Of a DNA stretch of 64,000 bases, positions 10,203 to 64,000 are shown in pieces. Under the pieces are notes generated by a model. The model did not search any database and was not told where the DNA came from. It worked only from the letters and a program-made list of their open reading frames with translations. The stretch is from positions 2,688,001-2,752,000 of the forward strand of contig OZ242318.1 of the NCBI GenBank assembly GCA_965208105.1, in the 5' to 3' direction. Position numbers and translations under genes: made by a program. Every line of letters begins with the position of its first letter. The first letter of the stretch is position 1. This stretch comes from Candidatus Latescibacterota bacterium (GTDB lineage Bacteria > Latescibacterota > UBA2968 > UBA8231).

Positions 10203-10248
10203 CAAGCTGAGCTGGGTTCTGAAATCAAGGAGAAAGGGGTCACGCAAT

Positions 10249-13322: not shown

Positions 13323-13796
13323 ATGTGGTCGCGGATTTCGGCGTCTGTGATGATCGCCGCTTTGTGGGGCTGCGCGGACAGGGCGGAAATCGGTGAAACC
13401 GCAGCCTATGTCGCCCGGGTGAAGAAACTCCACCATTACAACCAGGAGATCCAGACCCGCATCGACTACTTCGCCGACCTCCATCTCGATGCCGGAGAAG
13501 CAGAGATGGAATCCGTGCGCACCTTGATTGAAGATTACGCCAGGGAGGTGAAATTATTGGGGGGACCCGATGATCCGGCTCTCCGGAGAATTCACGAACT
13601 GTACGTCCGCTCCCTCGAGGAATTCCTGGATCCGGGCAAGGATCGATCGGAGGGACCTGGGCAGCGGCGCCGTGCAGTCGCCCCAGGGTTGCGGCAGTTG
13701 CGGCGGAATATCAGAGACCTGGTTCACCCGGGTTTAAGGGTGCTGCTGGCGCGACGCAACCTGGATGGGGACGAATACGATTTGCGATGGCCCTAG
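13323..13796 (+). CDS. hypothetical lipoprotein
   Basis: GGAGG RBS; MWSRISASVMIAALWGC lipobox; ends in TAG at 13794-13796. Confidence 0.65.
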   Translation: MWSRISASVMIAALWGCADRAEIGETAAYVARVKKLHHYNQEIQTRIDYFADLHLDAGEAEMESVRTLIEDYAREVKLLGGPDDPALRRIHELYVRSLEEFLDPGKDRSEGPGQRRRAVAPGLRQLRRNIRDLVHPGLRVLLARRNLDGDEYDLRWP

Positions 13797-15346: not shown

Positions 15347-15507
15347 TGTCCCGTCGCAGAGATAGGTTGACGCAATTGGGCCGCCGAGGCGCCCGGCTCA
15401 CAAGGCGCCTGAGCGAGTCGTACCAGTGGTGTACGGCGAGTGAAGGCAACGCCGTGAGCCGGGATGGATCGGGGGAATAATGGCGACATATCTCTGCGAC
15501 GGGACAC
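15346..15507 (+). mobile_element. 162-bp MITE, copy 1
   Basis: Terminal IRs GTGTCCCGTCGCAGAGATA...TATCTCTGCGACGGGACAC; near-identical to copies at 17194 and 36011. Confidence 0.9.
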
Positions 15508-15517
15508 TGGCAGATTA

Positions 15518-46245: not shown

Positions 46246-46264
46246 GGGACCCGGGGCATTCTCC

Positions 46265-50200: not shown

Positions 50201-50399
50201 TTTGGCCTGGACTTCGAAGCGGCAGCCGCTTCCCGGCGGAAATTTCAGGACCGCTTTTCAGGGAGAAAAGGAGATTTTTCGTACTTCGAGTGAAGCGGGC
50301 ACAGCTCTTCCCGCCGGAGTGGCGGCTCACCTTCGAACAACTGCCACGAACCTAGCAACAACAAACATGGCAGTCAAGAAAGGAAGCACATGGCATGGC

Positions 50400-50489
50400 T
50401 CATAACGTCTTGCCGATTTGCCAACCGCCAAGCGGTTGCTGAAGGCCAAGGCGCGATCGGCGCCGCAGCGCAACCCCGATGTGTTACAT
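50400..50489 (-). repeat. attC-like site 1
   Basis: + strand TCATAAC...GTTGCTGAAGGCCAAGGCGCGA...GTTACAT. Confidence 0.8.
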
Positions 50490-50509
50490 GATATGCTCAA
50501 CCAATTCAA

Positions 50510-50860
50510 TCAATTGTCTTCATCTACGGCGAGATCTACAAGGAGTTCCAACTCTGTCGTCGATCCACGCACCCAGGTATCCTTCTTGAACTGTTGATGA
50601 AAGGCATCAATCTCATGCTTTGACTGCTTGACCACATGGCGGGCGCGCTGCAGGTCTTCGGACCGCATGTACGAGAGGAGATATACCTCGTCATTTAACG
50701 TCAGCAAGAACCAGGATTCGACTTTCACTCCTTCTTCGCGTAATGTAGCCAACGCTTCGTCCTTGCGCTCGTTTATGGTGCTTGCCCATGCTACCACCCC
50801 ATCCTCAGAATTCTCCTTAAGCCTTCTCAATGTTGCCTTTACGTCCACGTCAACCTCCAT
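50510..50860 (-). CDS. cassette: DUF6176-like protein
   Basis: EALATLREEGVKVESWF...YLLSYMR...IDAFHQQFK. Confidence 0.65.
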   Translation of the reverse strand: MEVDVDVKATLRRLKENSEDGVVAWASTINERKDEALATLREEGVKVESWFLLTLNDEVYLLSYMRSEDLQRARHVVKQSKHEIDAFHQQFKKDTWVRGSTTELELLVDLAVDEDN

Positions 50861-50874
50861 GTTTTCGGCATTTC

Positions 50875-50970
50875 AAGTAACGTTCCCGCCGCTTGTGAAG
50901 CTGCCGGAGCGAAGCGGAGGCAGTTTGGTCCGGAGTGCCGCAGGCACGGAGCACAAGCGGCGTGTTACAC
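50875..50970 (-). repeat. attC-like site 2
   Basis: + strand AAGTAAC GTTCC CGCCGCTTGTG...CACAAGCGGCG T GTTACAC. Confidence 0.85.
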
Positions 50971-51085
50971 GTTGCCGTGGCCGGGGGAGGGAAGGTTCTG
51001 CCCAAACAGTAAGGGCGCTGCCTCTATCAAAACAAGAAGACTTCCATAGAGATTCTTGCCAAATGAGCCATTCAGCGGGCACCTT

Positions 51086-51980
51086 TTATCCTATCTGCTG
51101 ACGCACTGCAGAGATGATGTTTTTCATCAACATGACGTTGGTCATTGGGCCAGTGCCTCCAGGTACGGGAGTGATCATGCCTGCAACCTGCACAGCCTCA
51201 TCGAAGTCCACATCGCCGCACATCTGACCGTCCACGAAATTGACACCGAAATCGATCACCACTGCGCCAGACTTGATCCACCCACCCTTGATCATCCTGG
51301 CTTGACCTACGGCCGCACACAGGATATCGGCCGTGCTGCACACCGTAGCCAGGTCCTCAGTACGTGAATGGCATATTGTCACTGTGGCGTTTTCTCTTAA
51401 AAGCAGAAGAGCCATCGGCTTGCCCACGATGTTCGAGCGACCTACAACTACCACCAGCTTACCTTGGAGTTCCACATCGTACCGCTTAAGGATCTCTAAC
51501 CCTCCGGCGGGCGTGGCCGGTACAATAAATGGTCCGACCATAGGTGGCCGACCCACAGGCGCCACTTGGGCCAGTCCTCCAGTGTTCTCTGGATGCACAC
51601 CGTCTACGTCCTTGCCTGGAGACAACGCATCTTTGACAGCTGCCTCGTCGATTCCCTTGGGCAGGGGCTCTTGAATCAAAATGCCATGTACGGCCGGGTC
51701 GGTGTTTAACTTGGCAACCACGGTCACAATGTCATCTTGGGTAGAAGTATCTGGTAAGGCGTGGAGTTGGAAACCCAATCCTTGATTGCCAAAAGACTTC
51801 CCCAGAACATTGGCATAGCTGACCGAGGGCATAGCTGACCGAGGCCCGATCCTCCCCGGCACGCAAGACCGCCAGCGTTGGCTTATCTCCGTGCTGCTCT
51901 GCGAAGGCGGAAACCTCCGCTTCGATCTCCCTACGCATTGATTTTGCCAGCTTGCGGCCATCCAGGATCTTTGCAGCCAT
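51086..51980 (-). pseudogene. folD: cassette: bifunctional methylene-THF dehydrogenase/cyclohydrolase, frameshifted
   Basis: MAAKILDGRKLA..SVSY in one frame; KDVDG, GRSNIVGKP and TPVPGGTGPMT in another; 16-bp tandem duplication at 51812-51843. Confidence 0.9.
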
Positions 51981-52035
51981 CTTAACCCTCTCCTTCCCCC
52001 CTCTCAGGTTAATCTCTGTAAACGTTTTGGCAGCC

Positions 52036-52668
52036 CTACAGTTTGCTTACCACGAACTCGTAAACCTCGTCGCTCAGAGCTGGTTTGCTTTCCAGCAAAG
52101 CGTCCAGCTTGGTCTGATTCTCCTTGACGAAAGCTTCGTCGTTGATCCAGCTCAGGTTGATGAGAACATTAAGAGCAGCACTGCGCAGCCCAATCTCGGC
52201 CATCAACACGGCTACCCCAGCGTCGCTGACTACGTTCGTGTTGCCCTTCTCGGCCGCGGGACGACACAAGTCCATCACCCGGATGCATGCCTCAGCTACC
52301 TGCATTGGAACGTCAGCAGCAGCCTTTAGGGCTTCCTCCATCGCCGCAGCACGGGCTGCCTTCTGCTCATTGGTTTCGCCTGGCATCTTCATCGCTTGGG
52401 AGACTTGGGTATAGGCATGGATGTCGGCCTCCAGCAGATCTGTGAGCAGACGGCGTAGTTCTTCCGACTGCTCCAGCAGGCCTGCGATGTCCTCTTGGAC
52501 ACCGGCGTACTGCTTCTTACCGGTGGTCAGATTGCAGACCATGCTGATCAGGGCAGCGCCCAGAGCTCCTGATAGAGCAGCCACGCTGCCCCCACCTGGA
52601 GTTGGTGCGGAACTTGACAGTTCATCCAGGAAGATCCTCACGGGCTTGTCGATCAATCTTTCAGTCAT
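52036..52668 (-). CDS. fchA: cassette: formimidoyl-THF cyclodeaminase / methenyl-THF cyclohydrolase (FTCD_C family)
   Basis: LSSSAPTPGGGSVAAL and GNTNVVSDAGVA...ALNVLINL motifs. Confidence 0.88.
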   Translation of the reverse strand: MTERLIDKPVRIFLDELSSSAPTPGGGSVAALSGALGAALISMVCNLTTGKKQYAGVQEDIAGLLEQSEELRRLLTDLLEADIHAYTQVSQAMKMPGETNEQKAARAAAMEEALKAAADVPMQVAEACIRVMDLCRPAAEKGNTNVVSDAGVAVLMAEIGLRSAALNVLINLSWINDEAFVKENQTKLDALLESKPALSDEVYEFVVSKL

Positions 52669-52732
52669 TGTGTACTCCTTCTGGCCACCTCATCAGTCTA
52701 TGATCATCGAGGGGGTAGTAGGCCACGGTTTC

Positions 52733-52822
52733 GTATAACGTCTCACAATTCACGAGGTCGCGGATGCGACTTGCCGAAGGCCAAGTGCCGAATGGCGCGC
52801 AGGGTGAATTGCTGTGTTATCG
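52733..52822 (-). repeat. attC-like site 3
   Basis: + strand GTATAAC..CAATTCAC...GTGAATTG..GTTATCG. Confidence 0.82.
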
Positions 52823-52890
52823 GTTGTGGATATCTGAGTACATGGTTGATACCTCTTGGCCACTGTGACATGTGGACCGCAGCGATGGCA

Positions 52891-53415
52891 CTACTTAGAT
52901 TCGGCGTCTTCAATGAGACGAAAGCCCATCTTAAGGTTCATGGATTGGGACGCACAATTCTTCGAACTAAAGCCAGTACGTATAAACCTATAACCCTGTG
53001 AGAGCGCGTAGCTTATACCCTTCCACTTCAACGTAGTGGCGATACCTTGCCGCCTATTTTGGGGTCGTACCCCGGTCATGCACTGACAGATTTCGCATGA
53101 AATCCCCTGTGATTTGATCATGTAGCTGTATCCAACATAGTTACTCTCACTTTTTGCTATGAAAATGGTGTTCCAATCATCAAATCGTTCCAGGTATTCT
53201 TCTAAGGTCCAATCAGGTTTCACATGGACGACCAGAGCAAGATCGTAGAGACAGAGAAGATGATCAGGATTCCTGCTAGCCTCCTCGGCCAAAGAGGTAA
53301 ATGAAATACCTTGGGCAAGAACTCGTTGGATAGCCGATTCGCCTTGTGACAGATCGACCGTACCCAGGTCAAGCACAGCCTCGAGTTTTGTGGGCTCAGA
53401 GTTGGTAGTGGTCAT
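52891..53415 (-). CDS. cassette: GNAT acetyltransferase
   Basis: TGVRPQNRRQGIATTLK motif A; N...SMNLKMGF. Confidence 0.85.
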   Translation of the reverse strand: MTTTNSEPTKLEAVLDLGTVDLSQGESAIQRVLAQGISFTSLAEEASRNPDHLLCLYDLALVVHVKPDWTLEEYLERFDDWNTIFIAKSESNYVGYSYMIKSQGISCEICQCMTGVRPQNRRQGIATTLKWKGISYALSQGYRFIRTGFSSKNCASQSMNLKMGFRLIEDAESK

Positions 53416-53445
53416 ATGCTATGGTCCTCTATCCATATCCATTGC

Positions 53446-53513
53446 CGATAACGTTTTCCGTGGCCTCGAACCGCGAAGCGGTTGCGCGAAGGCCGGGCAC
53501 GGACGTGTTATGT
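53446..53513 (-). repeat. attC-like site 4 (short)
   Basis: + strand CGATAAC...CCGCGAAGCGG...GGGCACGGACGTGTTATGT; the TAA stop of the upstream ORF lies within the core. Confidence 0.85.
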
Positions 53514-54089
53514 GACGTGGGACAACACTTTTCGCGATTTCAATGCTGCAAGTACTTGGGCCATGAGCTCCTCCAAGCTACACCACCCATCCAAAATGAG
53601 ATCGCTGTTGGCCTTGTCTCGGTAGGTATCCAAGTACGGATACCGAGCTCGCTCCAAATAGTTCGACATGTCGTCACGCAGTTTCCTCAGTTTCTCGTTG
53701 GCGGATTGGCTGCTGCTGGAACCGTAGTCCCGCAAGATGCGCCGAGCCATAGCGACGTCAAGAGGCGTGTCGACAAATACCGCTAAATCAATGAGATCAC
53801 GGAAACGAGTGTGACCGCGGCCGAATGGAAAATCCAGAACAATCTGTTTCGCAATTCCTCTTTGCACCTCAGCGACAACTGCTGCGTGCATGCCAGGACA
53901 GTCGAACTCTTCGACGTCACCACCACGTCGGCCCCACTCGTAAAAATCGTCTGGATACACGTTGGATTCGTCGAACTCATCAAACTGAAAGAGAACCGAG
54001 TCCGGCAATTCATCGTGGAGGGCAATCGACAGAGCCGTTTTGCCACCACCAGAGACAGAGTTAACCGAGATAATAAATGGCTTCGTCAT
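53508..54089 (-). CDS. cassette: P-loop nucleoside/uridine-kinase-like protein
   Basis: SVSGGGKT Walker A; FVDTPLDVAMARRILRD. Confidence 0.8.
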   Translation of the reverse strand: MTKPFIISVNSVSGGGKTALSIALHDELPDSVLFQFDEFDESNVYPDDFYEWGRRGGDVEEFDCPGMHAAVVAEVQRGIAKQIVLDFPFGRGHTRFRDLIDLAVFVDTPLDVAMARRILRDYGSSSSQSANEKLRKLRDDMSNYLERARYPYLDTYRDKANSDLILDGWCSLEELMAQVLAALKSRKVLSHVT

Positions 54090-54125
54090 CGGCGGTCTAG
54101 ACAGGAAGTATTCTCAACTCATGTC

Positions 54126-54210
54126 ACATAATTTTTTCGCCGTGCCCGAACCGCGAATGCGGCTGCGCGAAGGCGCGTCAGCGCCGAAGCCGGGCATGGA
54201 CGTGTTAACT
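54126..54210 (-). repeat. attC-like site 5 (core AAC changed to AAT)
   Basis: Body matches sites 7, 10 and 13 but begins ACATAAT TTTTTC; SDR stop codon lies in the other core. Confidence 0.8.
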
Positions 54211-55131
54211 GCCGTTGCTAAGGTCCATCGACATAGCTCGGCGGATTGCAGTGGATCGAGCTGTATGACTACCACGTCCCAATTCCGTTTGGTGGAATGG
54301 TTTGGGACGAGATCCATCTATGTCTACAAAACCGTATTCCTTGGCTAATTCACCAACAATCAAGATCTGTCCGGTTTTGTTCAGGATCTCGGGATCAGCT
54401 GCCAATGCACGTATCGCTCGCCCCGTGTACTGTGGCGACTCTGTAAACAGCAACTTTTCTTTAAAGATGTACTTCATCACACCCTCGGTTCGCACATAGC
54501 CAGGCCAAAGCGAAACGCATGCTACACCATACTCCTTAAACGTAACTGCCATCTCAATCGCCAATTTATCTGTTGCCAACTTTGAAGCGAGATAGTAGAC
54601 GTCGCCCGGGCCTTCTTGTGAACTATAATTGGAAATATTGACGATCAATCCACTACCTGTATGTATCATGAGCGGTGCGGCATAGGTACTGGCGACGTAA
54701 TGTGAGCGAAGTCCTACATCGTGCGTGGCATCCCATTGTTCGATAGGGTGCTCCCAGAATGGACCTGAGTAGTACACGTCTCTGTGGGCATTCTCATACC
54801 CCGACCAAACGTTGTTCACGAGGATGTCTATATGACCTTGCTCGTCCTCAATCCGTTTGAATACGGCCTTCACCTGATCGTCTTTTCGGTGGTCGCACCG
54901 GCAGGGAATCCCCTTTCCTCCCAAACGCGATACTTCACGGGCCGTGGCGGTCAGAGACCCTTCCACAGGAACGGTCTGGTCGCCTGATTTCATGGTGCGA
55001 CCGGTGATATAGACGGTGGCTCCGGCTTCCCCCAAGGCCAAGGCCACTCCTTTGCCAACGCCTCGACTGGCCCCGGTCACTACGGCGATCTTGCCTGCTA
55101 GTGGCAGGCCGCCTGTCTGACTTTTCGGCAC
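54205..55131 (-). CDS. cassette: short-chain dehydrogenase (DHRS1-like)
   Basis: VTGASRGVGKG, ILVNNVW, YLASK and SLWPGYVRTE motifs. Confidence 0.9.
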   Translation of the reverse strand: MPKSQTGGLPLAGKIAVVTGASRGVGKGVALALGEAGATVYITGRTMKSGDQTVPVEGSLTATAREVSRLGGKGIPCRCDHRKDDQVKAVFKRIEDEQGHIDILVNNVWSGYENAHRDVYYSGPFWEHPIEQWDATHDVGLRSHYVASTYAAPLMIHTGSGLIVNISNYSSQEGPGDVYYLASKLATDKLAIEMAVTFKEYGVACVSLWPGYVRTEGVMKYIFKEKLLFTESPQYTGRAIRALAADPEILNKTGQILIVGELAKEYGFVDIDGSRPKPFHQTELGRGSHTARSTAIRRAMSMDLSNGS

Positions 55132-55207
55132 GGCTTTGCCTCCTGCTTATCAGCGTAGTGAAGTGAGAGGAGGAAGCAATAAGATTGTTTTCTCCCCATG
55201 CAATGGC

Positions 55208-55348
55208 CGTTAACGTTGTGCCGGTTTGCGAACCTGGCGCGTCCCGAAGGGCTGGCGCGAGCTTTGCCCTGCAAAGCGAGTGACAGAAGCCAGGTTGCCG
55301 AAGGCCAAGACGGCGAAGGCCGCCGCAGCGCGAAACGTGCTGTCACCC
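55208..55348 (-). repeat. attC-like site 6 (long; core GTT changed to GTC)
   Basis: + strand CGTTAAC GTTGTGCCGGTTTGCG...multiple hairpins...CGAAACGTGCT GTCACCC. Confidence 0.75.
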
Positions 55349-55382
55349 GCTGTGCGGATAGGCTCTCCTACCAAGGTCCGGT

Positions 55383-55859
55383 TCATGGCCTTGAATGAGC
55401 AAGAGCTTGATTAGTAATTGTCTGCTGATTCCGAAGTATGAGATCCCGCTGCTCAGGCCAGAGAAAAGCTGGCAGATTCTGAATCGGGTGCCACCACATA
55501 CCAGTGTGCCATTCGCTATCCGTTGGAATGCCGTCGATCTGTTCAGTTAAAAAGAGGAAATAGTGAATGATCAACCATAAGTCTCGATTGTAGGAAAGCC
55601 GCTCAAGGACGTCTAGCCTGCCCAGGAGCCTAACCTCATCCAAGCCGGTTTCCTCATGAATCTCGCGGATCGCGGCGTCGACAACGTCCTCTCCTGACTC
55701 CACACCGCCTTTGGGTAGGACGAACTCCTCGATGGACTTCTCGCGTGCTAACGCAACAAGCACATCACCTTCGTCGATGCGGACGACAACCCCTCCGCTC
55801 GTCTGGCGCTCAGGGATTCCGGCGGGTCTTCGATACCAGGAATCGTCGATTACTGTCAT
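55383..55859 (-). CDS. cassette: NUDIX hydrolase
   Basis: LPKGGVESGEDVVDAAIREIHEETG Nudix box. Confidence 0.92.
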   Translation of the reverse strand: MTVIDDSWYRRPAGIPERQTSGGVVVRIDEGDVLVALAREKSIEEFVLPKGGVESGEDVVDAAIREIHEETGLDEVRLLGRLDVLERLSYNRDLWLIIHYFLFLTEQIDGIPTDSEWHTGMWWHPIQNLPAFLWPEQRDLILRNQQTITNQALAHSRP

Positions 55860-55913
55860 CTAGTGGCTCGTTCGGAATCTCAGGAATGTTTCGATTTCCA
55901 CAGAACGCATTGC

Positions 55914-55995
55914 GGGCAACGTTCTCGCCGTGCCCGAACCGCGAATGCGGTTGCGCGAAGGGCATAGCCCGAAGCCGGGCATGGACGTGTTATAG
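55914..55995 (-). repeat. attC-like site 7
   Basis: + strand GGGCAAC GTTCTCGCCGTGCCCG...CGGGCATGGACGT GTTATAG. Confidence 0.88.
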
Positions 55996-56039
55996 GAAAT
56001 GCCAGCTGATGCGCCGAAGTAATTCTCAGAGGATTAAGC

Positions 56040-56612
56040 CTAACCCCTAATCTGGATTTCCCAGTTCGATCTGTCCATAACATAGATCGCGCCCTCCCAC
56101 CACTTATCAGACCGGAGTAGGCACTTCTCCCTGATTTCGGCCAGCCTGAATCCAAGACGTTCAGGTGTTGCCCGACTTGCCTGGTTGACAGTCGCAGCGC
56201 AGACCGTCACTGTGCCCAAACGTAGCTCCGTAAATGCAATATCAAGTAGTGACTTGCAGCACTTGGTTATGATCCCCTTTCCTCTGTAGGATTTAAAGAG
56301 CCAGTAGCCAAGGTCCCCAGTATCTCCGACTTTGATTCCAGAAATCCGACATGTTCCAGCGACTTTCCCTCCTAGTTCGACCGCCCCTCCGAGCCGGGTG
56401 GAGGCCTTCAGGGCTTCGTTCACACGATCAATCTCCGCATGGAGGTCCGCAATGTTTTCCATCGTGTTGATCGAATGAATCCAAAATAAGTCATCTTTCT
56501 CATTTTCGATCAGGTTATATAACTTGGCAACATCAGTCTTGGAATAGGGCCTGATGCACAGCCCATCCTCGACCTGAATGGTTTGCGTGCAATCGTATGT
56601 AGTTGCGGCCAT
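56040..56612 (-). CDS. cassette: RimJ/RimL-type GNAT acetyltransferase
   Basis: LGYWLFKSYRGKGII and NQASRATPERLGF motifs. Confidence 0.88.
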   Translation of the reverse strand: MAATTYDCTQTIQVEDGLCIRPYSKTDVAKLYNLIENEKDDLFWIHSINTMENIADLHAEIDRVNEALKASTRLGGAVELGGKVAGTCRISGIKVGDTGDLGYWLFKSYRGKGIITKCCKSLLDIAFTELRLGTVTVCAATVNQASRATPERLGFRLAEIREKCLLRSDKWWEGAIYVMDRSNWEIQIRG

Positions 56613-56669
56613 GAGATCCCCTCAGTCAGGAGGTTTTAAAAGATCGCATATGTCCAAAATTTGGCTTTC

Positions 56670-56755
56670 CTATAACGTTTGGCCGGTTTGCGAACTTGCC
56701 GAAGGCAAGTTGGGCGAAGGGGCGAACGCCCCGAGCCGCAGACGGCCTGTTATGC
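56670..56755 (-). repeat. attC-like site 8
   Basis: + strand CTATAAC GTTT GGCCGGTTTGCG...CGCAGACGGCC T GTTATGC. Confidence 0.85.
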
Positions 56756-56812
56756 GGTCGTAGGGGTTCGAGGTCTCCAACCAGACGCGGGCGGCCACAT
56801 AGCATCAGTTCT

Positions 56813-57631
56813 TCACTTGTTCTTGCCCACTGTCAGGAGATGCAGGCTCACGCCCAGAAGTACTGACTCTTCTTCTATCAAGCGGAGGGCTTCCAGAATG
56901 ATCTCTTGCCGTTCTGGGTCTAACCAACGCTCGTCGAAATCCCCCAAGAGCCACGCTGGCCCTTCTAGCCCGACGGTTCTCAAATGATTAAATCCCGCTT
57001 CTTCGATTTCCTCTTGTAGTTCCTCTGGCCTGTGGAAGTATGCTGTCGTGAAATAATGGGGGTCTTCCTTCGGATTAAGGTGTTTTCCATCTCTCAAGTC
57101 TCTTTCCACAATTTCACGAAACTCTGGATCAGATAAAAAACCCCGTTTCAATCCGTCGAGAAGGGATGCGAACCGTGAAATGGCAGCACAACAAACCAAG
57201 CCACCCTTCTTTAGGACTCGGCGAGCTTCCTTGAGCGCCTGGATCCGATCCGATCGATCTGGAAGGTGATACAGCGGTCCAAGCAGGAGCACTACATCCA
57301 TCGATTCAGACTCGAAGTCAAGCTCTCTGGCGTCTCCCTGGCTGATGCTGGCAAGAAGTGGTCCGCCTTCCCGGGTCTTGGCCTGCTCCACGTGGAGGGG
57401 CACAATGTCAATCAGATGGACTTTGTACGATTCTTCTGCCAGCCAAAAGGAGTAAGCACCTGGCCCTCCTCCGACGTCCAGGATTTGAGCCGGTGGAGGC
57501 GGTAAATATCTCAGCAGAACTTCCTTCGTCCTTTCGAACTCCACACGGGAAGTTCCCTCGGCCAGGCGAGTCGCCTCGTCTTTGACAGTCTCGTAATGTC
57601 TGACCACCTTCGGATCCATCAGTTGCTCCAA
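56813..57631 (-). CDS. cassette: class I SAM-dependent methyltransferase
   Basis: ILDVGGGPG, GDAR, LLGPLYHL and RVLKKGG motifs. Confidence 0.92.
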   Translation of the reverse strand: MEQLMDPKVVRHYETVKDEATRLAEGTSRVEFERTKEVLLRYLPPPPAQILDVGGGPGAYSFWLAEESYKVHLIDIVPLHVEQAKTREGGPLLASISQGDARELDFESESMDVVLLLGPLYHLPDRSDRIQALKEARRVLKKGGLVCCAAISRFASLLDGLKRGFLSDPEFREIVERDLRDGKHLNPKEDPHYFTTAYFHRPEELQEEIEEAGFNHLRTVGLEGPAWLLGDFDERWLDPERQEIILEALRLIEEESVLLGVSLHLLTVGKNK

Positions 57632-57688
57632 TACTGGGCGTCTGCCCGCTACGACGATAAATTAAATGACCCTTCGAACCCCTATGCC

Positions 57689-57778
57689 GCCTAACGGTTT
57701 ACCGGTTGCCGAACCCGCGTAGCGTGTTGCCGAAGGCCAAGCGCCGAATGGCGCGCAGCGTGAATTGCTGTGTTATAC
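57689..57778 (-). repeat. attC-like site 9
   Basis: + strand GCCTAAC...TTGCCGAAGGCCAAG..GTGAATTGCTGT GTTATAC; right half shared with site 3. Confidence 0.8.
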
Positions 57779-58350
57779 GACGGCATCTTCACCAAGACCC
57801 TCGACAATGTCGGTCACAGCGAAATCTGGATGTGTCAATACAATCCACGATGGTAAACCCAATCGCTTCCATAGCGCGAAGGGATCCAAGTCTGAAATTC
57901 GGCTCACGAAAAGTGAAATCACGGTTCCATGGGCAACCGCCACCACGTTCCTTTGTGCGAATTTGCGTAGTACTTCCTCAATGGCCTGGGAAAATCTAGT
58001 GTGAGCAGCGTCCGCGGTCTCGTTGCCTAGAACCAGCTCAGTCGGCCGCGAGAAGAGATCGGCGATCGATCGAAGGTCGATTTCTCCAGAAAATCAACGC
58101 CCCGACGGTCGTGCTCATGTAACCCGTCGACCTCGTGAAGCGGCACTTCGAGAAAGGAGGCTATGATCTCCCCAGTTTGGGTGGCCTTTGGCTCGGGACT
58201 AGTGACAACTACATCTGGGTCGCATTGTGACAATCTTTTCGCAAGCGACTGAGCACGATCTCTCCCCTCGGGTGAAAGTTGCCACTCACGAGCAGGAACT
58301 GCAGATTCAATCTGAGGCAGCGAATGCTTTACCAGGGTAAGACGACTCAT
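57773..58350 (-). pseudogene. cassette: histidine phosphatase (phosphoglycerate mutase-like), frameshifted
   Basis: LVKHS..SPEPKA..GLHEH in one frame; IADLF..GNET..VAVAHGTVI..GLP in another, ending in TAA inside the att core; shift at the GATC repeat near 58064-58072. Confidence 0.82.
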
Positions 58351-58381
58351 ATGTTGAAGTTCGTCTTCTCAAAAGGCTGTC

Positions 58382-58464
58382 GTATAACGTTCTCGCCGTG
58401 CCCGAACCGCGAATGCGGTTGCGCGGAGGGCGAACGCCCGAAGCCGGGCACGGACGTGTTAGCG
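58382..58464 (-). repeat. attC-like site 10
   Basis: + strand GTATAAC GTTCTCGCCGTGCCCG...CGGGCACGGACGT GTTAGCG. Confidence 0.88.
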
Positions 58465-58526
58465 GATGGCTGCTCCGAAGTGGCCTGCCGGGATGGCAGG
58501 CCACAACACCGCTAATTCGGTGGTTC

Positions 58527-59402
58527 CTACCACCGCCTTCTGGTACGTGCCAATCCTCTCTTGGTAATACCAATACTCCCAGTCCATTCTTCTCTGTGCA
58601 GGGCGGCCAAGCTGTCTACTTCCAGTATGAGTTCCTCCAGCGCCTTGAGACCTTGATCCGGTGCATCCAGAAGGATTCGCTTTAGCCGATGAGCGAAATC
58701 AGGAGGTTTCAGATCCATCTCATCGACGATTTCGTCCAGCCTCTTGATGGGTTCCGGGACCGGCAAGTAAATCCGGTTGAGGCCCAACATCGCGCGGACC
58801 AAGCGCTTCTCAGCATCTACAATCGCGTCGTAGAGTCCGAGGATATCACCTCTTGCAAGCAGCATATCCACGTTGCTGAATAGCCGCCCAAAGTCCAAGT
58901 TTCGTTCCAGCATGACCAGAGTGAGTCCATCAGGGTATGCGTCTGCCCGTGACTTCCAATCGAAAGCCAAGCTTTGCCCTGCAACTGGGACAGAATGTTG
59001 GACGGAATACAACCTCAGCTGTGCGTCCTCGTCTGGGTCGCAACGGTTGATCACCCGATCCAGAAAGTCCTCCATTGTTGAGACCAGGAACGTGCTTGTA
59101 TGTGCGGGAAACCCCGAGAACTCCATCTGCTCTTCCCACTCAATATCGTCCTCATCCAGGCACTTGAGCTCCGCGCCACAGCTCCGGACAGAACTCACTC
59201 GCTCTTCCTCGGTAGGTGCCGCAGAGTAGTACACGTCAATCTCAATATCTGAAAACTCGTCTGCGGTACCTCTACCAACGGAACCAGCAACCATCACAAC
59301 TTCTGTCTTGGGGTTGTTCGAGTAGGCGTAGGCAATCTTCTTAGCAAGATCAAAGCGCCACTTCGTGGCAGGGTTCATGGTCGACAATATCTCGTGTGCC
59401 AT
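58527..59402 (-). CDS. cassette: nucleotidyltransferase-domain protein
   Basis: AGSVGRGTADEFSDIEI pol-beta motif plus helical C-terminal domain. Confidence 0.82.
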   Translation of the reverse strand: MAHEILSTMNPATKWRFDLAKKIAYAYSNNPKTEVVMVAGSVGRGTADEFSDIEIDVYYSAAPTEEERVSSVRSCGAELKCLDEDDIEWEEQMEFSGFPAHTSTFLVSTMEDFLDRVINRCDPDEDAQLRLYSVQHSVPVAGQSLAFDWKSRADAYPDGLTLVMLERNLDFGRLFSNVDMLLARGDILGLYDAIVDAEKRLVRAMLGLNRIYLPVPEPIKRLDEIVDEMDLKPPDFAHRLKRILLDAPDQGLKALEELILEVDSLAALHREEWTGSIGITKRGLARTRRRW

Positions 59403-59446
59403 GGGCGACCAGGACGGTCGCCCGTACTCTTAGCGAGCAGCATTTC

Positions 59447-59537
59447 CGCTAACGTTTCGCCGGTTTGCGAACCCGCACAGCGGGTTGCCGAAGGCCAAGG
59501 CGCGACCAGCGCCGCAGCGCAAAACGTGCTGTTAAAC
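59447..59537 (-). repeat. attC-like site 11
   Basis: + strand CGCTAAC GTTTCGCCGGTTTGCG...CGCAAAACGTGCT GTTAAAC. Confidence 0.85.
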
Positions 59538-59547
59538 GACGTGCTAC

Positions 59548-60246
59548 TCACTCCCCGCAAGAAATCCCATGTTCGCCGAGGATCAAAGAGGAAACGACAC
59601 CATTGGTGCTCTTGCTTCGTTTTCGGAGCAACTTGACGTGATCCCGGTGTGGATCTTCACACTGTCCTCTATCCCATTCCACTTGGAACCTGTACCGACC
59701 TGTTTCTTTGACGAGGAAGGCTTCATGAGGTCTATGCCAAGGAAAAGGAGCTGTGGTAAGACTCTCCCTTGTGAAATTGGGTTGCGCAGCAAGCTCGACT
59801 ACGGTCCAATCTTTCACGTCTGGTGCCAGGACCAGTCTTGCTGCAGATCGCAGTGACTTAAAAGTGAAGCCATCCGCATCTCGTCGTATGCCGCTGTGTC
59901 CAGACAGGCGACCTCGATCGGCAAGGTGATACCAACGGGCGATTTTGGGTCTGCGCGGATTTCGCAGATCGTAAATAGTGATTTGGTCCATCATAAAGAC
60001 TATCAAGTAATGTCCGTAATGAGCATAGCCGTCTACGTTGAAGCCGATCTCCGTTTTTACGCTGCCAGCGACATGCAGGTCCGTAGAGTCATTGAGGATC
60101 ACGACGTTGAACTGTCTTCTAACAGGTTCGGGACCGGCGAAGGTGTCGAAAATGAAAAGATCGTCGAATGCGTAGATATCCAGATCATGATCTGCATGGA
60201 TGATACTGGGCAGGACTAGATAACCGACAAAAACCCAGCGTTTCAT
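59548..60246 (-). CDS. cassette: hypothetical exported protein
   Basis: Single ORF filling the cassette; MKRWVFVGYLVLPSIIHA signal-like start. Confidence 0.65.
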   Translation of the reverse strand: MKRWVFVGYLVLPSIIHADHDLDIYAFDDLFIFDTFAGPEPVRRQFNVVILNDSTDLHVAGSVKTEIGFNVDGYAHYGHYLIVFMMDQITIYDLRNPRRPKIARWYHLADRGRLSGHSGIRRDADGFTFKSLRSAARLVLAPDVKDWTVVELAAQPNFTRESLTTAPFPWHRPHEAFLVKETGRYRFQVEWDRGQCEDPHRDHVKLLRKRSKSTNGVVSSLILGEHGISCGE

Positions 60247-60278
60247 TCACAGTCCCTTATAGTCATGTCTTGCATGTC

Positions 60279-60368
60279 GTTTAACGTTTCACGGTTTGTG
60301 AACCCGCGAAGCGGGTTGCCGAAGGCCAAGGCGCGATTGCGCCGCAGCGCAACACCGTGCTGTTGTGC
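60279..60368 (-). repeat. attC-like site 12
   Basis: + strand GTTTAAC GTTTCACGGTTTG...CAACACCGTGCT GTTGTGC. Confidence 0.85.
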
Positions 60369-61058
60369 GACGTGAAACCATCTCTCACGCAACTGCGTTT
60401 TTCGCTATCCGAAAGATCTGACTGGAATTTTCGATGAAGAACTCGCTGAAATCGACGACGGCACGTGAACGTTCGAAACCCTCGTCGTGGAGGTAGAAAC
60501 GCACCACCTGCTGGGGCCAAAGCGCGACGACCGTCCAGGGCAGAAGCTCGCATTCTTGCGAGCATAGCCGACCACCTCCTGTTGCGTAGCATCGCAACAA
60601 ATTTTCCAAGTACTGCAGTTCAGGGACTCTTGTTGCGGACCACCGAAAATCTTCATAGTGGTCAATTGGGACTGGCCAACCGCACGCGACTCCAAGAAAA
60701 TGTGCAAGATCAAGAGTTCGCGGCGCCAATCGGGCATGGTCCCAGTCAACAATGCTTGCGACGATGTCGCCAGCAAAGCGGCAATTGAAATGGCAGTAAT
60801 CGCCGTGAATAGGCTCAGAAGATAGACCCTCCCACCGTAGCCGACTCATCTCTCGCCAAGCGATTTTCAGATGTTCTTCGAGCATGTTGATTGTTTCTAG
60901 AAGATCGGACCCGATTTGCCCTTGAGCTTCCTCTAGCCGGGTGGCGGACAACTCAAATGGATCATTCTTCCATCGTTTTCCGCCAATTTGCAAGGTTTTC
61001 GTAATTCGGTGAAGTGCACCCAGGCTCTTCGCGCAGCTGCTCACTTGTGCTGCCGCTA

Positions 61059-62214
61059 GTGCTCTGTTAAGGATTCAGGCTTGTACTTTTTCGTACATGT
61101 TGGTATCATGGGGACATATGTCCATTTTTCTGGGAGGGTCCTGCCATGTGCCTCCATGCTCGAACACCGGATGCTGCCGAATCGAAAGAACTGGGCCGAT
61201 GGCTGAAGCGGCCACGCAATGCCGTACAGATGCGACGAGGGCAATTGATCTCCCTCAGTGCCCAGGGTATGCGGGTCCAGGAGCTGTCGGCGACGCTGCA
61301 TCTGCACGAGGAATACATCCGCTCCCTGGTCCGACGATACAACGAGGAAGGGCTGGCGTCGCTTCGCACGCGAGCCCACCCGGGGCGCACCCCAGCGCTG
61401 ACGCCCGAAGACGAGTCCGTGGTGGTGGAGATCGCCAAGATGCCCCCTCGGGCTTTCGGCCAACCCTTCAACCAGTGGTCGCTGCGCAAGCTGACCGACT
61501 GTCTGGTCGGGCGCAAGATGATCCCCAAGGTCTCGCACGTGACCATCGCCAAGGTCTTGGACCGGCATAAGGTCACCTACCAACGTACCCGCACCTGGAA
61601 GGAGTCGAAGGATCCGGATTTCTCCTCGAAAAAAAACGCATCGACCGCCTCTACCGGCGTGCGCCGAAGGACTCGGTCGTAGTCTGCTTCGACGAAATGG
61701 GGCCCGTGCAGATCAAGCCCCATGCCGGCTCCTCCTGGGCGCCGCAGAAGCACCCGGTGCGGCACCGAGCCACCTACACCCGGCACGCCGGGGTCAGCTA
61801 TTTCTTCGGCGCCTACAACGTCCACGAGGACGTCCTGTGGATGCATCACAAGCGAAAGAAGCACGCCTCGGAGGTGCTCACTTTCCTCAAGGCCATCCGG
61901 CACCGCTACCGCAAGGCCCAACGCATCTACCTCGTTCTGGACAATTTGTCGACGCACGCGACCCCAAAGATTCGGCAATGGTGTCGGCAGCATCGAGTCT
62001 CCCTCGTCTTCACCGCTACCAACGCCTCCTGGATGAACCGTCTCGAATGCCATCTGACCGCCGCCCACTACTTCGTCATCAAGAACAGCGACCCAAGGGA
62101 CCATCGAGACATCGGCCAGCGCATGCAGGAATACCTCGTATGGAGAAATCGAAACCAGGACGATGCCAAGCTCGCCAAAATACAAAATTCAATGCCCACT
62201 CTTTAACAGCGCAC
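61059..62214 (+). mobile_element. IS630-family insertion sequence
   Basis: IRs GTGCTCTGTTAAGGA and TCTTTAACAGCGCAC; TA duplication (61057-61058, 62215-62216) in a CTAG target. Confidence 0.92.
61146..62206 (+). CDS. IS630 transposase (orfA/orfB joined by -1 frameshift)
   Basis: HTH orfA with WSLRKL; A8 run at 61629-61636; -1 frame gives VCFDEMGP, VLDNLSTH and SWMNRLE (DDE). Confidence 0.88.
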
Positions 62215-62622
62215 TAGCTGAGGCGAATATCCGCGTCCGACATAGTCGAACAGCGTGAAATGGCGATCGGCGTGCCGACAAACGCGCTGACCATCTGTTG
62301 TCTGGTGAATCTTCGGAGTTGGCGAAAATTCCCCACGACAAGATTCCTGAAGGTCCAGACAGAAATTGCGCTCTTCCGCGGATTCGACGAACTGAGGCCA
62401 TTCCTTGAGGAAGAACCTACCTTGCGCCGTTGAGAACTCTACGACGAGACGGTTGCCCCATACAACTAGCTGAGTCACCCTCTTATTTGTGTCGCCCAGC
62501 CCGTACTCGCTTAGAACACGACTGAGAACGTCAAGGTCACTATAGGAAAGGTCGTAGTTGAATTTCTGCGGCAAATTGTAGGAGTCCCCTTGGACTTGAA
62601 GCTTGTCCTAAGATTTCATGTC

Positions 62623-62705
62623 GCACAACGTTCTCGCCGTGCCCGAACCGCGAACGCGGTTGCGCGAAGGGCGCATGCCCGAAGCCGGGCACGGACGTGT
62701 TATGC
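62623..62705 (-). repeat. attC-like site 13
   Basis: + strand GCACAAC GTTCTCGCCGTGCCCG...CGGGCACGGACGT GTTATGC. Confidence 0.88.
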
Positions 62706-62723
62706 GATACTGGCGTGCGACGT

Positions 62724-63236
62724 CTATTCCTCACCACTCCAGTAGTTTCCCGTCAGACCTTCTTTGACCTGTGTCCACACTGTCAGACCCTCACGTTCTT
62801 CACTCAAAGGTCCCTTATCAACCGCCAATGTACCACTCAGCGAAACCTTATCGCTGTCTGGATAATAACACGTGTCGAACTCAGGATTGTTTGATATTAC
62901 CAGATACTCGAAGTCGCTGTCGCCGACGTTTGTCAGCTGGTGCGCAACGCCAGGTTGACATTGAACTGCGTCGCCAGCTGCGAGATCGAGTGTCCCTTCC
63001 GCGAATCGCATCGTGGCTGATCCCCTGATCACGAGATAAAACTCCCACTGTGTCCCGTGCGCATGATAGGTGAAAGCCTTCTTCCCAGGTGGGACAATGT
63101 AGTTGTCTACTTCGAAGGGCCTCTTTGCTTCCAGGTCACCAATAGCCTTGCTCAAGCTCCTCTCGATTTTGCAATAGCGACTCTTGGGAGACTCGAGTCT
63201 CCTCTTTTCAATTTCCTCTATGTTGATCTTCTTCAT
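62724..63236 (-). CDS. cassette (first in array): cupin-domain protein
   Basis: PPGK...YHAH....EFYLV..G and PGVAHQLTN cupin motifs; YYPDS. Confidence 0.88.
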   Translation of the reverse strand: MKKINIEEIEKRRLESPKSRYCKIERSLSKAIGDLEAKRPFEVDNYIVPPGKKAFTYHAHGTQWEFYLVIRGSATMRFAEGTLDLAAGDAVQCQPGVAHQLTNVGDSDFEYLVISNNPEFDTCYYPDSDKVSLSGTLAVDKGPLSEEREGLTVWTQVKEGLTGNYWSGEE

Positions 63237-63292
63237 ACCTGTTCCAACCTCTGTTGATCTTGAAGGTTACCTTCCGTGCCATCCGCCAGTTC

Positions 63293-63332
63293 GCATAACT
63301 ACTTTTAATATGCGAACTATTGGTTCGCATAT
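63293..63332 (-). other. attI-like head site
   Basis: Last GCATAAC core is not followed by an attC body; instead an AT spacer and the perfect IR ATATGCGAAC-N5-GTTCGCATAT. Confidence 0.55.
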
Positions 63333-63361
63333 ATGCCATCGCGAGTTACTTATGTGACAAA

Positions 63362-63390
63362 AAGGTACCTGGTAGCGCAAACAGTCGCAA
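63362..63390 (-). promoter_or_regulatory. candidate cassette promoter (Pc-like)
   Basis: Minus strand TTGCGA-N17-TACCTT pointing into the array; motif resemblance only. Confidence 0.3.
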
Positions 63391-63641
63391 TCAAAATCCC
63401 CAAGGCGTATGCTTTACGTAATTCTTTGAAGTAGTTTGGATAGCACGACTTTCCCGAGGTCCAGCACACTTGGCACGCATTTCATTGGCGAGGGTCACAT
63501 CCGTTTGGCCTGGGAAAACGCACGATGCGGAGCGGATGGAGCACATAAAGGGCGTTACTAGGGAGTCGGTCTGGGGACAGGCCGTGGGGCGCTACGGGGT
63601 GTGAGTGCCTGGCACAGGATCGAAGCGGCTACTGCTATGCT

Positions 63642-64000
63642 TCATTCCAGTTGCGCCGCCAGCTCTTCTGCCGGATAGGTGAGGATTTCGGCGAGGGTCG
63701 GGTGGTAGTGGGGCATGCGGGCAAGATCCTCGACCGTGCCGCGGAAGTAGAGGAGGGCGACCAGTTCGTGAATCAGCTCCGCAGCCTGGGGACCGACGAC
63801 ATGGGCGCCGAGCACTTCGCCGCCGCGCGGCCGGCAAAGCAGTTTGACGTGGCCGTGGGTTTCACCCAGGCACATGGACTTGCCGTGGTCGTCGAAGGGA
63901 TAAGAGGCCACCAGGTAGGGAATTCCGCTCTCCCGGCACTGCTTTTCGCCGAGACCGACGCTGGCAACCGCTGGATCGGTGAAGATCACCGAGATATTGA
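63642..64000 (-). CDS. pyridine nucleotide-disulfide oxidoreductase C-terminus (Lpd/MerA-like), partial
   Basis: IFTDPAVASVG, GEVLGAHVVGPQAAELIHE and HYHPTLAE dimerisation domain. Confidence 0.85.
   Translation of the reverse strand, partial: NISVIFTDPAVASVGLGEKQCRESGIPYLVASYPFDDHGKSMCLGETHGHVKLLCRPRGGEVLGAHVVGPQAAELIHELVALLYFRGTVEDLARMPHYHPTLAEILTYPAEELAAQLE

Follow-up and report, generated by a model that had tools for sequence, protein, structure and literature searches.

An integron-type cassette array with an attI-like leader in Latescibacterota, and a candidate recombinase family without the IntI-specific insertion

The window analysed here is a stretch of 64,000 nucleotides from a Latescibacterota genome. 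It holds an array of 13 gene cassettes, all on the minus strand, each ending in a hairpin site with the form AAC...GTT (Table 1). GC content falls within the array, with bins of 0.51–0.57 (0.61 in the bin holding an insertion sequence, IS), compared to 0.63–0.67 in the four bins preceding it. A preliminary description had recognized 13 lower-GC, minus-strand units with AAC...GTT palindromes, and the site coordinates, site lengths, and GC bins bear this out. However, the 13 units do not each carry a single intact gene: one unit has two genes, and three genes are broken. The two-gene unit is cassette 12, in which nothing but a remnant 3′ core stands between FTCD_C and FolD. The broken genes are FolD, which carries 16 extra bases near 51812 that are missing from three other sequencing runs, the frameshifted His_Phos gene, and the APH gene, which is split by the IS. 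We take this IS to be IS630-like; it has a 100% identical copy in the 2-Mb array described below and three copies in the sister species. Three ORFs have their TAA stop codon inside the 5′ core, as had been described: the kinase-like gene, the SDR gene, and the C-terminal part of the histidine phosphatase gene. The Pfam matches also agree with the earlier view of the cargo as mostly small-molecule enzymes, with no toxin-antitoxin family among the Pfam matches of the array.

Table 1. Features of the cassette array, in window coordinates. Sites are numbered in coordinate order and lie on the minus strand.
Feature	Position	Strand	Content	attC-type site (number)	Basis
Cassette array	50263-63635	-	13 cassettes
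Whole leader, including attI	63296-63548
Remnant of deleted insert-less recombinase gene	63525-63548	+	first codons
Array leader, conserved	63300-63548	-	~70% identical to the attI-to-recombinase-gene stretch at 2.06 Mb
attI-like site	63296-63332	-	9-nt inverted repeat, 5-nt spacer, at 63308-63332; GTTA at 63299-63296		leader alignment
Cassette 1	62629-63298	-	cupin, ORF 62724-63236	62623-62706 (13)	Pfam + site model
Cassette 2	60285-62628	-	APH-like phosphotransferase, ORF pieces 62203-62574 and 60385-61044, split by IS	60279-60369 (12)	Pfam + site model
IS	61056-62217	+	DDE_3 transposase in two frames; inside cassette 2		Pfam
Cassette 3	59453-60284	-	232-aa protein, no Pfam family	59447-59538 (11)
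Cassette 4	58388-59452	-	Polbeta-type nucleotidyltransferase (weak Pfam match)	58382-58465 (10)
Cassette 5	57695-58387	-	histidine phosphatase (His_Phos_1), frameshifted	57689-57779 (9)
Cassette 6	56676-57694	-	SAM methyltransferase	56670-56756 (8)
Cassette 7	55920-56675	-	GNAT (Acetyltransf_3)	55914-55996 (7)
Cassette 8	55214-55919	-	NUDIX	55208-55348 (6), 141 nt
Cassette 9	54132-55213	-	SDR	54126-54211 (5), 3′ core ATT
Cassette 10	53452-54131	-	P-loop kinase (PRK-like)	53446-53514 (4), 69 nt
Cassette 11	52739-53451	-	GNAT	52733-52823 (3)
Cassette 12	50881-52738	-	FTCD_C cyclodeaminase and FolD	50875-50971 (2)
Remnant 3′ core in cassette 12	~52020-52030		between FTCD_C and FolD
Cassette 13	50406-50880	-	DUF6176	50400-50490 (1)

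The 13 sites lie within 12.3 kb and are 69–141 nt long, including the 7-nt boxes at both ends. Like attC sites, they are imperfect palindromes that have AAC and GTT triplets and R and L boxes and vary in their central part. AAC stands at the start of 12 of the 13 and GTT at the end of 12 of the 13; among 84 such sites, the 5′ core reads TAAC in 68 and the 3′ core GTTA in 62. The palindromes are GC-rich, intergenic, and grouped in sequence families, three of which (4/5/7/10/13, 1/6/11/12, and 3/9, in the earlier numbering) had been noted before and are seen in the site alignment. Pairing in the inner stem is maintained by compensatory changes at all seven pairs, with 106 cells compared to 43 ± 6 after shuffling; none of 500 shuffles reached 106. 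Rfam returned no match for the window sites. No tyrosine recombinase was found in or adjoining the array when the last 14 kb of the window was searched, and the nearest of the four tyrosine recombinase loci in the genome is at least ~160 kb away, in keeping with the earlier report of flanks free of such genes. With at least two clustered attC sites and no integron integrase nearby, the array classifies as a CALIN, its sites being called by a sequence-specific covariance model built on the 13 window sites themselves. Judged by these sequence features, the stretch is an integron-type cassette array, and we infer its mechanism below.

At the head of the array is a conserved leader containing an attI-like site, i.e., an inverted repeat followed 8 nt on by the GTTA with which the first cassette starts. 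Eight leaders, five from this genome and three from the sister species, align as far as this GTTA and diverge beyond it; compared with the others, the window leader has 3 nt more in its attI spacer. A GGTTCG motif is conserved in the attC sites, where its distance from the 3′ GTT does not vary, and attI contains a similar motif; a hybrid leader with its joint at this motif was also seen. No sigma-70-type promoter was found in the window leader. The leader and attI-like site do not appear in the preliminary description.

The genome contains at least seven arrays of this type, with ~91 sites in total. The covariance model of the window sites identified 64 further sites at E ≤ 0.01, and 75 of the 77 matches fall within seven clusters. 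With filters off, the search returned 71 further sites, 50 of which adjoin a recombinase gene that we call sIntI. This 50-site array, at 2.01–2.06 Mb and 690 kb from the window array, sits beside the only IntI-like gene in the genome. The sIntI-linked array has attI next to the integrase gene and cassettes joined at GTT; the window array has the same arrangement minus the gene. A whole-genome search found no canonical intI, so the ordinary intI elsewhere in the genome that, together with strong canonical attC scores, would have removed the novelty was not seen.

Several observations bear on whether cassettes move. The sister species lacks the entire array at the syntenic locus, which measures 93 bp there and 13,373 bp here. 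At the DNA level, only one of the 13 window cassettes, cassette 13, has a homologue in that species, where it is placed in another array; the other 12 have none. Within the genome, cassette copies are 98.6–99.5% identical; cassette 7, for example, has a 98.6% identical copy in the 2-Mb array, with homology ending at both AAC|GTT cores. Such copies point to recent movement. One cassette follows an attC site in this genome and the attI palindrome plus GTT in the sister species. The crossover base is placed approximately, since the end of one duplicated cassette falls short of the G of the core. Runs from three other studies share distal cassettes and differ in gene content, and a contig of one metagenomic run (X7) has the attI palindrome directly followed by the GTT at 60285 and cassette 3; this and the other metagenome joints rest on contigs with short sides of 22–42 nt in repeated sites. 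The fixed cassette content among relatives that would have spoken against a cassette array was seen neither in the sister species nor in the other runs.

The sIntI gene best matches the integron integrase family TIGR02249, scoring 216 bits over a 254-residue piece, below the cut-off of 265; the match is split in two, leaving out model positions 180–234. Relative to VchIntIA (PDB 2a3v), which is also the top match of the predicted fold, ~42 residues are missing at the IntI-specific (I2) insertion. The best match in the genome is therefore not an integrase with that insertion. In an alignment with 36 canonical IntI sequences, the 42 insertion columns are empty in all 52 insert-less rows, whereas the catalytic-region motifs are kept, and the domain pair in relatives is the same as in IntI (Phage_int_SAM_4 and Phage_integrase). 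In recombinase trees, which were quick searches supported by SH-aLRT only, the 36 canonical rows form one clade (SH-aLRT 99.7) with the 52 insert-less rows as its sister. Estimates of dN/dS are 0.08–0.25 in 14 of 15 ortholog pairs, those with unsaturated dS, indicating that sIntI is under purifying selection. The gene is intact in the sister species. By contrast, the copy in this genome has a premature in-frame stop after ~57 codons, so an intact candidate enzyme is absent here; the array in this genome is probably frozen for now. The preliminary description had proposed looking for a tyrosine recombinase, with or without the insertion, beside homologous arrays, and the insert-less gene fits that description. 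In five of five genomes examined (G000, G001, G016, G014, and G010, this genome included), a divergent array begins, with its first site, 0.7–1.4 kb from the clade-1 gene, and second-clade genes have a site 1.4–2.4 kb downstream on the same strand in the two cases examined among those genomes. An IS91-linked tyrosine recombinase was considered as the identity of the widespread family and rejected: 23 neighboring ORFs from 11 loci gave no match to an IS91-type transposase.

Site geometry differs with the enzyme. In this genome, the spacers between R and L differ between the two arms by +3 nt in 38, +2 nt in nine, and +4 nt in five of 56 parsed sites. Canonical IntI exceeds the TIGR02249 cut-off in eight of 41 relatives, seven of them in the same family. 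Two of four such relatives have their own arrays, with spacer differences of 0 or +1 nt, and in all four the model gave no match at E ≤ 0.01 within 10 kb of canonical IntI. In the published attC model, unpaired spacers are nearly symmetric and extrahelical bases occur on one arm. As far as spacer geometry goes, the earlier label of “non-canonical” is supported. The same 3-nt asymmetry together with an insert-less recombinase occurs in Bacillota, Bacteroidota, and Ignavibacteriota. In other phyla, at least one such site lies downstream of the recombinase at 27 of 40 loci; 196 kb of downstream sequence contains 46 sites with +2 to +4 nt versus eight with −2 to −4 nt, and 376 kb of upstream sequence contains 12 versus two. 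By these comparisons, site type goes with enzyme type.

Of the two readings in the preliminary description, one was a CALIN-like array served in trans and the other a distinct integron-like system having its own recombinase. The two are supported jointly, since the array has no integrase, and the sole IntI-like gene, which lacks the insertion, lies far away beside an array of the same type. We consider it likely that the window holds an array of an integron-type capture system, with an attI-like head and 13 promoterless, co-oriented cassettes moved in trans by a recombinase acting on folded attC, sIntI being the best candidate. Cassettes would insert at the GTT of attI and be excised between attC sites. 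The recombinase, probably of the insert-less sIntI family, would recognize a folded single strand of attC, perhaps in a manner comparable to the action of Xer on the folded CTX-phage site. The outer (R) and inner (L) stems are spaced asymmetrically, with a conserved 3-nt difference, and this would set the choice of strand and register; in canonical IntI, the same role falls to extrahelical bases that the I2 helix holds.

Other explanations deserve weighing. Ordinary, insertion-bearing IntI, since lost by the genus, could have built the arrays, with the insert-less gene a bystander or a decayed derivative. The broken sIntI and the three broken cassette genes would suit such a history, and because canonical IntI is present in eight of the 41 relatives, it may have acted in the past. 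Moreover, deletion of the insertion is reported to abolish IntI1 activity (Escudero 2020, PMC7790495, citing Messier and Roy 2001), and for this reason hairpin recombination by an insert-less enzyme stays a proposal. We nevertheless regard a purely ancestral origin as improbable: searches of this genome and the sister species turned up neither canonical IntI nor any fragment matching the insertion; the window site type is not found within 10 kb of any of the four canonical IntI genes examined, and two of these are accompanied by sites of another type; selection on sIntI is purifying, and the gene branches outside the canonical clade; the same pairing of gene and site occurs in phyla whose loci show no canonical IntI; and the near-identical cassette copies suggest that movement was recent.

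It is also conceivable, and in our view unlikely, that the insert-less enzyme runs the cassettes by Xer- or Cre-like recombination of double-stranded core sites (inner box, spacer, and GTT box), the palindromes serving, e.g., transcription termination or protection. At the place of the hairpin-reading insertion of IntI the enzyme is Xer-like, the perfect 9-5-9 inverted repeat of attI resembles a double-stranded core site, and both the fixed position of GGTTCG and the hybrid leader could be read in the same way. However, a core site would need neither stem conservation nor an arm difference, yet the stems are kept by compensatory change although sequence varies among families, the arms differ by a fixed 3 nt across phyla, and all arrays have one polarity relative to genes. 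Lastly, GC-rich intergenic palindromes in sequence families could be REP-like or regulatory elements inside a fixed, operon-like island of immobile cassettes. REP/BIME elements occur singly or in small groups, scattered among unrelated genes whose flanking order is stable; here, just two of 77 matches are single, against the scatter that had been named beforehand as the sign of such elements, the island is missing from the sister-species locus, single units recur elsewhere with core-bounded ends, gene content varies among runs, and eight arrays share leader and attI. These data already contradict the REP-like explanation, to which we give almost no weight.

A broader and more tentative possibility is that insert-less IntI-like recombinases are the enzymes of a second class of integrons, both ancient and widespread, which is the sister group of the classical class and extends across Latescibacterota, Bacillota, Bacteroidota, Ignavibacteriota, and others. 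Such enzymes would capture hairpin cassettes without the I2 helix, by means of the 3-nt arm asymmetry instead of extrahelical bases. Capture of cassettes as folded single strands would then be older than the I2 insertion, and the distribution of integrons would be far wider than present search tools indicate, extending to phyla in which they are said to be absent. In the current view, the I2 insertion enables recombination of folded attC (Cury 2016, PMC4889954; Escudero 2020, PMC7790495), and recombinases without it are accordingly not counted as integron integrases, even near attC. The discussion of integrase origins in Escudero 2020 (PMC7790495) describes a “lack of intermediates” as limiting reconstruction. 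Here, an insert-less sister family heads arrays of up to 50 cassettes with its own attI and attC geometry, shows natural cassette turnover, and is found in a bacterial family where canonical integrons of a different site type also occur. Because this family provides a natural pair of enzymes and sites, the need for I2 in hairpin recombination and the determinant of strand choice are directly testable. By implication, standard integron searches would miss a large share of cassette arrays or list them as orphan CALIN, with Bacillota and Bacteroidota among the phyla affected.

The closest known systems, under the IntegronFinder definitions, are sedentary chromosomal integrons and CALIN (Cury 2016, PMC4889954; Neron 2022, PMC9024848). 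In common with these, the arrays described here have co-oriented, mostly single-gene, promoterless cassettes; imperfect palindromes of the 57–141-nt class with AAC and GTT triplets; stop codons within the 5′ core; attI at the head, with junctions at GTT; one large array beside a divergent integrase gene plus several integrase-less arrays; site sequences that are homogeneous within the genome; and an IS within an array. They differ in that R-to-L spacers are unequal by 3 nt between arms, and in that integrase-less arrays retain a full attI leader and the first gene codons. They also differ in that the neighboring recombinase lacks the insertion required by those tools, so that every array here would be classed as CALIN at best. 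IntI itself is the best match of the insert-less family in sequence and fold, with the same domain pair and catalytic motifs, and is set apart by the insertion and the family score. Insert-less relatives of IntI are already known as proteins: Smyshlyaev 2021 (PMC8138268) describes an “integron-like” subgroup among the simple tyrosine recombinases, in an account that does not connect the subgroup with attC-type arrays, attI, or the movement of cassettes. Cury 2016 (PMC4889954) reports four intermediate recombinases, each with <3 attC sites, that were judged not to be IntI. In the open-access literature, we found no description of an insert-less recombinase with cassette arrays of this kind.

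A further comparison is with XerCD and CTX phage. There, Xer-like enzymes without the insertion use a folded hairpin as one partner, and irregular pairing in the center of the phage site restricts the reaction to one strand exchange. Whole phage genomes are integrated at dif by the host XerC and XerD; arrays, a gene-linked attI, and cassettes are absent. The action of XerCD on folded single-stranded CTX phage DNA is mentioned in Escudero 2020 (PMC7790495). The system proposed here would resemble it in the use of a folded hairpin by an enzyme without the insertion, and differs from it in having arrays, an attI beside a dedicated recombinase gene, and cassettes.

The array contains 13 sites on the minus strand (window 50400–62706), each opened by a (T)AAC core and closed by a GTT(A) core. 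The sites are 69–141 nt long, 7-nt boxes included, and every one lies immediately downstream of an ORF. The GC content of the array is 0.51–0.57, versus 0.63–0.67 in the four preceding bins. A preliminary description had read this region as an integrase-less cassette array built on non-canonical attC-like sites, either CALIN-like and served in trans or a distinct system; the array is real, and that reading was essentially right. Pfam matches bear out its list of cargo, mostly small-molecule-modifying enzymes, with toxin-antitoxin families absent. The ORF ends likewise place three stop codons within the 5′ core, and the three sequence families of sites it had named are seen in the site alignment. 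FTCD_C and FolD share one unit, with only a remnant 3′ core between them. The cassette genes for FolD, a histidine phosphatase and APH are broken, the last by an insertion sequence (IS) that has a 100% identical copy in the 2-Mb array of the source genome and three copies at 92–98% identity in the sister species (G001). FolD is read in two frames in the source genome (ORFs 51732–51980 and 51086–51961); 16 bases at about 51812–51828 are absent from contigs of three sequencing runs of other studies (X5, X6 and X7). The array's neighboring gene has a 1311-aa product that combines LTD, CotH and beta-helix domains with a type IX secretion sorting domain and is 90–94% conserved in the sister species.

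Rfam (E ≤ 1, window 45000–64000) returned no attC family and one chance-level 5.8S match, and RNAalifold predicted zero pairs from a MAFFT alignment of the 13 sites. The arms are too imperfect for an inverted-repeat search seeded at 9 nt, which did not pick the sites up. For single-strand folds, z-scores were modest, from −1.0 to −4.2. A covariance model was built from the 13 sites, with five outer and seven inner pairs set by hand. Scanned over the 4.85-Mb genome (150 of 4029 first-look candidates scored), as the preliminary description had proposed, it gave at least 77 matches at E ≤ 0.01; these are clustered, with two singles among them (see table). A filters-off search of 89 kb from six array loci yielded 71 sites, and the 2-Mb array accounts for 50. 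Two-sided changes occur at 7 of 7 inner-stem pairs among these 71 sites, in an alignment fitted to the model, which favors structure. The inner stem has 106 compensatory cells, a count that none of 500 shuffles equaled (43 ± 6) and that exceeds that of every slid partner. The sites are clustered and are not chance palindromes.

Coordinates of arrays, genes and leaders (model matches are among at least 77 in the source genome)
Feature	Genome or host	Coordinates	Detail
Model matches	Source genome	window	13
Model matches	Source genome	2.01–2.06 Mb	40
Model matches	Source genome	1.04 Mb	9
Model matches	Source genome	1.08 Mb	5
Model matches	Source genome	4.48–4.49 Mb	3
Model matches	Source genome	4.61 Mb	3
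Model matches	Source genome	0.29 Mb	2
IS in APH cassette	Source genome	window 61056–62217	DDE_3 transposase in two frames, split at run of T
Histidine phosphatase cassette gene	Source genome	window 57770–58350	Frameshift near 58050; pseudogene or assembly error
Array-adjacent gene	Source genome	window 46265–50200
attI-like site	Source genome	window 63289–63332
Best TIGR02249 match	Source genome	2061312–2062121
Leader of 1.046-Mb array (L122)	Source genome	G000:C1 about 1046785	Hybrid
Integrase-less leader (L117)	G001	5.757–5.767 Mb
Array headed by canonical IntI (L113)	G019	280–11756	Near-symmetric attC family, about 115 nt
Array headed by canonical IntI (L110)	G008	13492–15728	Near-symmetric attC family, about 115 nt
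3- to 8-site array, insert-less gene (L032)	A Desulfitobacterium	8422–12164
3- to 8-site array, insert-less gene (L059)	An Ignavibacteriota MAG	7116–12713
3- to 8-site array, insert-less gene (L063)	A Seonamhaeicola	8317–12341
3- to 8-site array, insert-less gene (L061)	A Paenibacillus	8688–9907

The 50-site array has its first site 0.7 kb away from the genome's best match to TIGR02249 (integron integrase), and the two are divergent. We refer to this insert-less IntI-like recombinase as sIntI. In the source genome, an in-frame stop interrupts its gene about 57 codons in; the open 254-residue part scores 216 bits against TIGR02249, below the cut-off of 265, with the match split in two around model positions 180–234, which are skipped, and the XerA and XerC/D models score lower. 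The G001 ortholog is an intact ORF of 312 residues. Among solved structures, it is most similar to VchIntIA (2a3v), with residues 27–190 matching 12–178 and residues 208–288 matching 238–318, leaving about 42 IntI residues unmatched. An AlphaFold model (pLDDT 84) lacks the helix of the insertion region, and its top fold match is 2a3v, followed by XerA. Aligned with 36 canonical IntI, all 52 insert-less rows have gaps throughout 42 insertion columns. Clade-1 orthologs (72–93% identity) have a divergent array 0.7–1.4 kb away in five of five genomes scanned (G000, G001, G016, G014 and G010, with G011 left out). For a second sIntI clade (53–58% identity), a same-strand site lies 1.4–2.4 kb downstream in two of two genomes scanned (G008 and G010). 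Among six clade-1 genes, dN/dS is 0.08–0.25 in 14 of 15 pairs, the remaining pair being saturated.

Full-length canonical IntI above cut-off occurs in 8 of 41 relatives and was found in neither the source genome nor G001. Within 10 kb of four canonical IntI genes, the site model had no match at E ≤ 0.01. The canonical IntI of two relatives, G019 and G008, head arrays of another site family, in which the outer–inner spacers differ by 0 or +1 nt. Of 84 sites in the source genome, a simple parser could read 56; in these, the 3′ spacer exceeds its counterpart by 3 nt in 38 cases, by 2 nt in 9 and by 4 nt in 5. G008 has both systems in one genome.

Eight leaders, five from the source genome and three from G001, align over 170–250 nt, a stretch containing a 9-5-9 inverted repeat plus GTTA, and diverge immediately past the GTTA. 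In each genome, an sIntI gene follows just one of the leaders. The window leader retains the first sIntI codons, after which the sequence breaks off. The integrase-less leaders of both species (L117 and the window leader) all end within the first few recombinase codons, and these truncated leaders have some sequence in common past the break. Comparison of the leaders suggests that one truncated module was copied to several loci. The window attI-like site has a spacer 3 nt longer than in the seven other leaders, and a third copy of the 9-nt arm, in direct orientation, right after GTT. The 1.046-Mb array has a hybrid leader, in which a GTTCGC motif common to both sides links the attI palindrome's left arm with the 3′ half of a second-family attC; the inner box, not the outer GTT, may have been the point of exchange here. 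A leader scan for sigma-70 promoters and terminators returned nothing; the promoter type of this organism may differ.

The flanks of the array (window 44862–50262 and 63636–64000) match G001 at 88–94%; they are 93 bp apart there versus 13,373 bp in the source genome. The DUF6176 cassette alone has a DNA homologue in G001, located in another array. A GNAT cassette of the window recurs in the 2-Mb array at 98.6% identity, with homology running from the AAC|GTT of the upstream site (the upstream sites differ) to the AAC of its own site. One cassette that lies behind an attC in the source genome is placed in G001 behind the leader palindrome instead, joined at GTT. For duplicated cassettes, the crossover could not be fixed to the exact base. 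Contigs from the three other runs, labeled as sponge and marine metagenomes, carry a flank and distal cassettes at 98–99% identity; one X5 contig has flank to 50392, i.e., within the segment missing from G001. In one X7 contig, the attI palindrome (63308) is followed by 5 letters and the GTT at 60285, so cassette 3 (a 232-aa protein) is first in line and cassettes 1 (cupin) and 2 (APH) are not between it and attI. This joint is what insertion at attI predicts. The joints are read from contigs and carry little weight; the attC-to-attC joints have sides of just 20–42 nt, within repeats, and other arrays may be their source. Uncovered stretches (57078–58145 and 58680–59213 in X7, 59748–60281 in X5 and X6) were not counted as absence. 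Recent activity is suggested by cassette copies that are 98.6–99.5% identical. With its enzyme gene broken, the source genome probably has a static array at present.

The SecA of the source genome is near those of Latescibacterota MAGs (65–73% identity). Beyond this lineage, a pattern scan of public genomes found 572 relatives of sIntI at 43–59% identity in many phyla. Linkage of this widespread family to IS91 was not supported: its neighbors vary, and an IS91-type transposase was absent from the 23 neighboring ORFs scanned at 11 loci. Of nine other-phylum loci inspected, five (Desulfitobacterium, Paenibacillus, Ignavibacteriota and two Flavobacteriaceae) have like-built AAC...GTT hairpin sites repeated downstream of the gene and on its strand; repeat search found no arrays in the other four (L030, L035, L072 and L043). 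According to published surveys, the groups of the four tabulated hosts have few or zero integrons. Because a simple hairpin scanner with stem ≥7 is noisy, with about 2 matches on each strand for every 10 kb of shuffled DNA, the stem threshold was raised to ≥8 and sites were compared by the sign of their asymmetry. The stricter scanner found at least one site in 27 of 40 loci having at least 1.5 kb downstream. Downstream sequence (196 kb) held 46 sites with +2 to +4 asymmetry versus 8 of opposite sign, and upstream sequence (376 kb) held 12 versus 2.

A tree of 92 rows (36 canonical IntI, 52 insert-less and 4 Xer-like) was built by a quick search with the insertion columns removed. The canonical rows comprise 6 from relatives and 30 of 80 public loci, taken for taxonomic spread, one more having been dropped for a stop; the insert-less rows comprise 10 from relatives and 42 of 80 public loci; the Xer-like rows come from the source genome and one relative. 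Canonical IntI form one clade (SH-aLRT 99.7), with the insert-less rows as sister when rooted on Xer. In an earlier 62-row tree, with canonical IntI of this bacterial family only, canonical IntI fell inside the insert-less group with weak support (86). The position of the insert-less family relative to canonical IntI is a lead, not a result.

These comparisons establish the anatomy and clustering of the sites, the attI junctions, the turnover of cassettes and the correspondence between type of site and type of enzyme. sIntI would be the recombinase of these cassettes and would act on a folded strand. A fixed 3-nt arm asymmetry may stand in place of the recognition by extrahelical bases and I2 that operates in classical integrons. 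On the folded site of CTX phage, Xer is restricted by irregular pairing, and the arm asymmetry may act likewise. The CTX-phage system is mentioned in Escudero 2020 (PMC7790495).

Parts of the same article describe I2 as necessary for cassette capture, with deletion of I2 killing IntI1, and intermediates as lacking (Escudero 2020, PMC7790495). Portions of Cury 2016 (PMC4889954) require the insertion profile to call IntI, report 50 insertion-less recombinases near attC sites, and conclude that these are not IntI; four of the 50 are intermediate between IntI and Xer, with <3 sites each. A section of Neron 2022 (PMC9024848) gives one complete integron and a few CALIN for Firmicutes. In the main text of open-access articles, we came across no account of arrays with an insert-less enzyme at their head. 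The window array is of integron type, with recombination presumably carried out by sIntI, but it differs from a canonical integron in the geometry of its sites and in a recombinase without the integrase insertion, the presence of which is one defining test.
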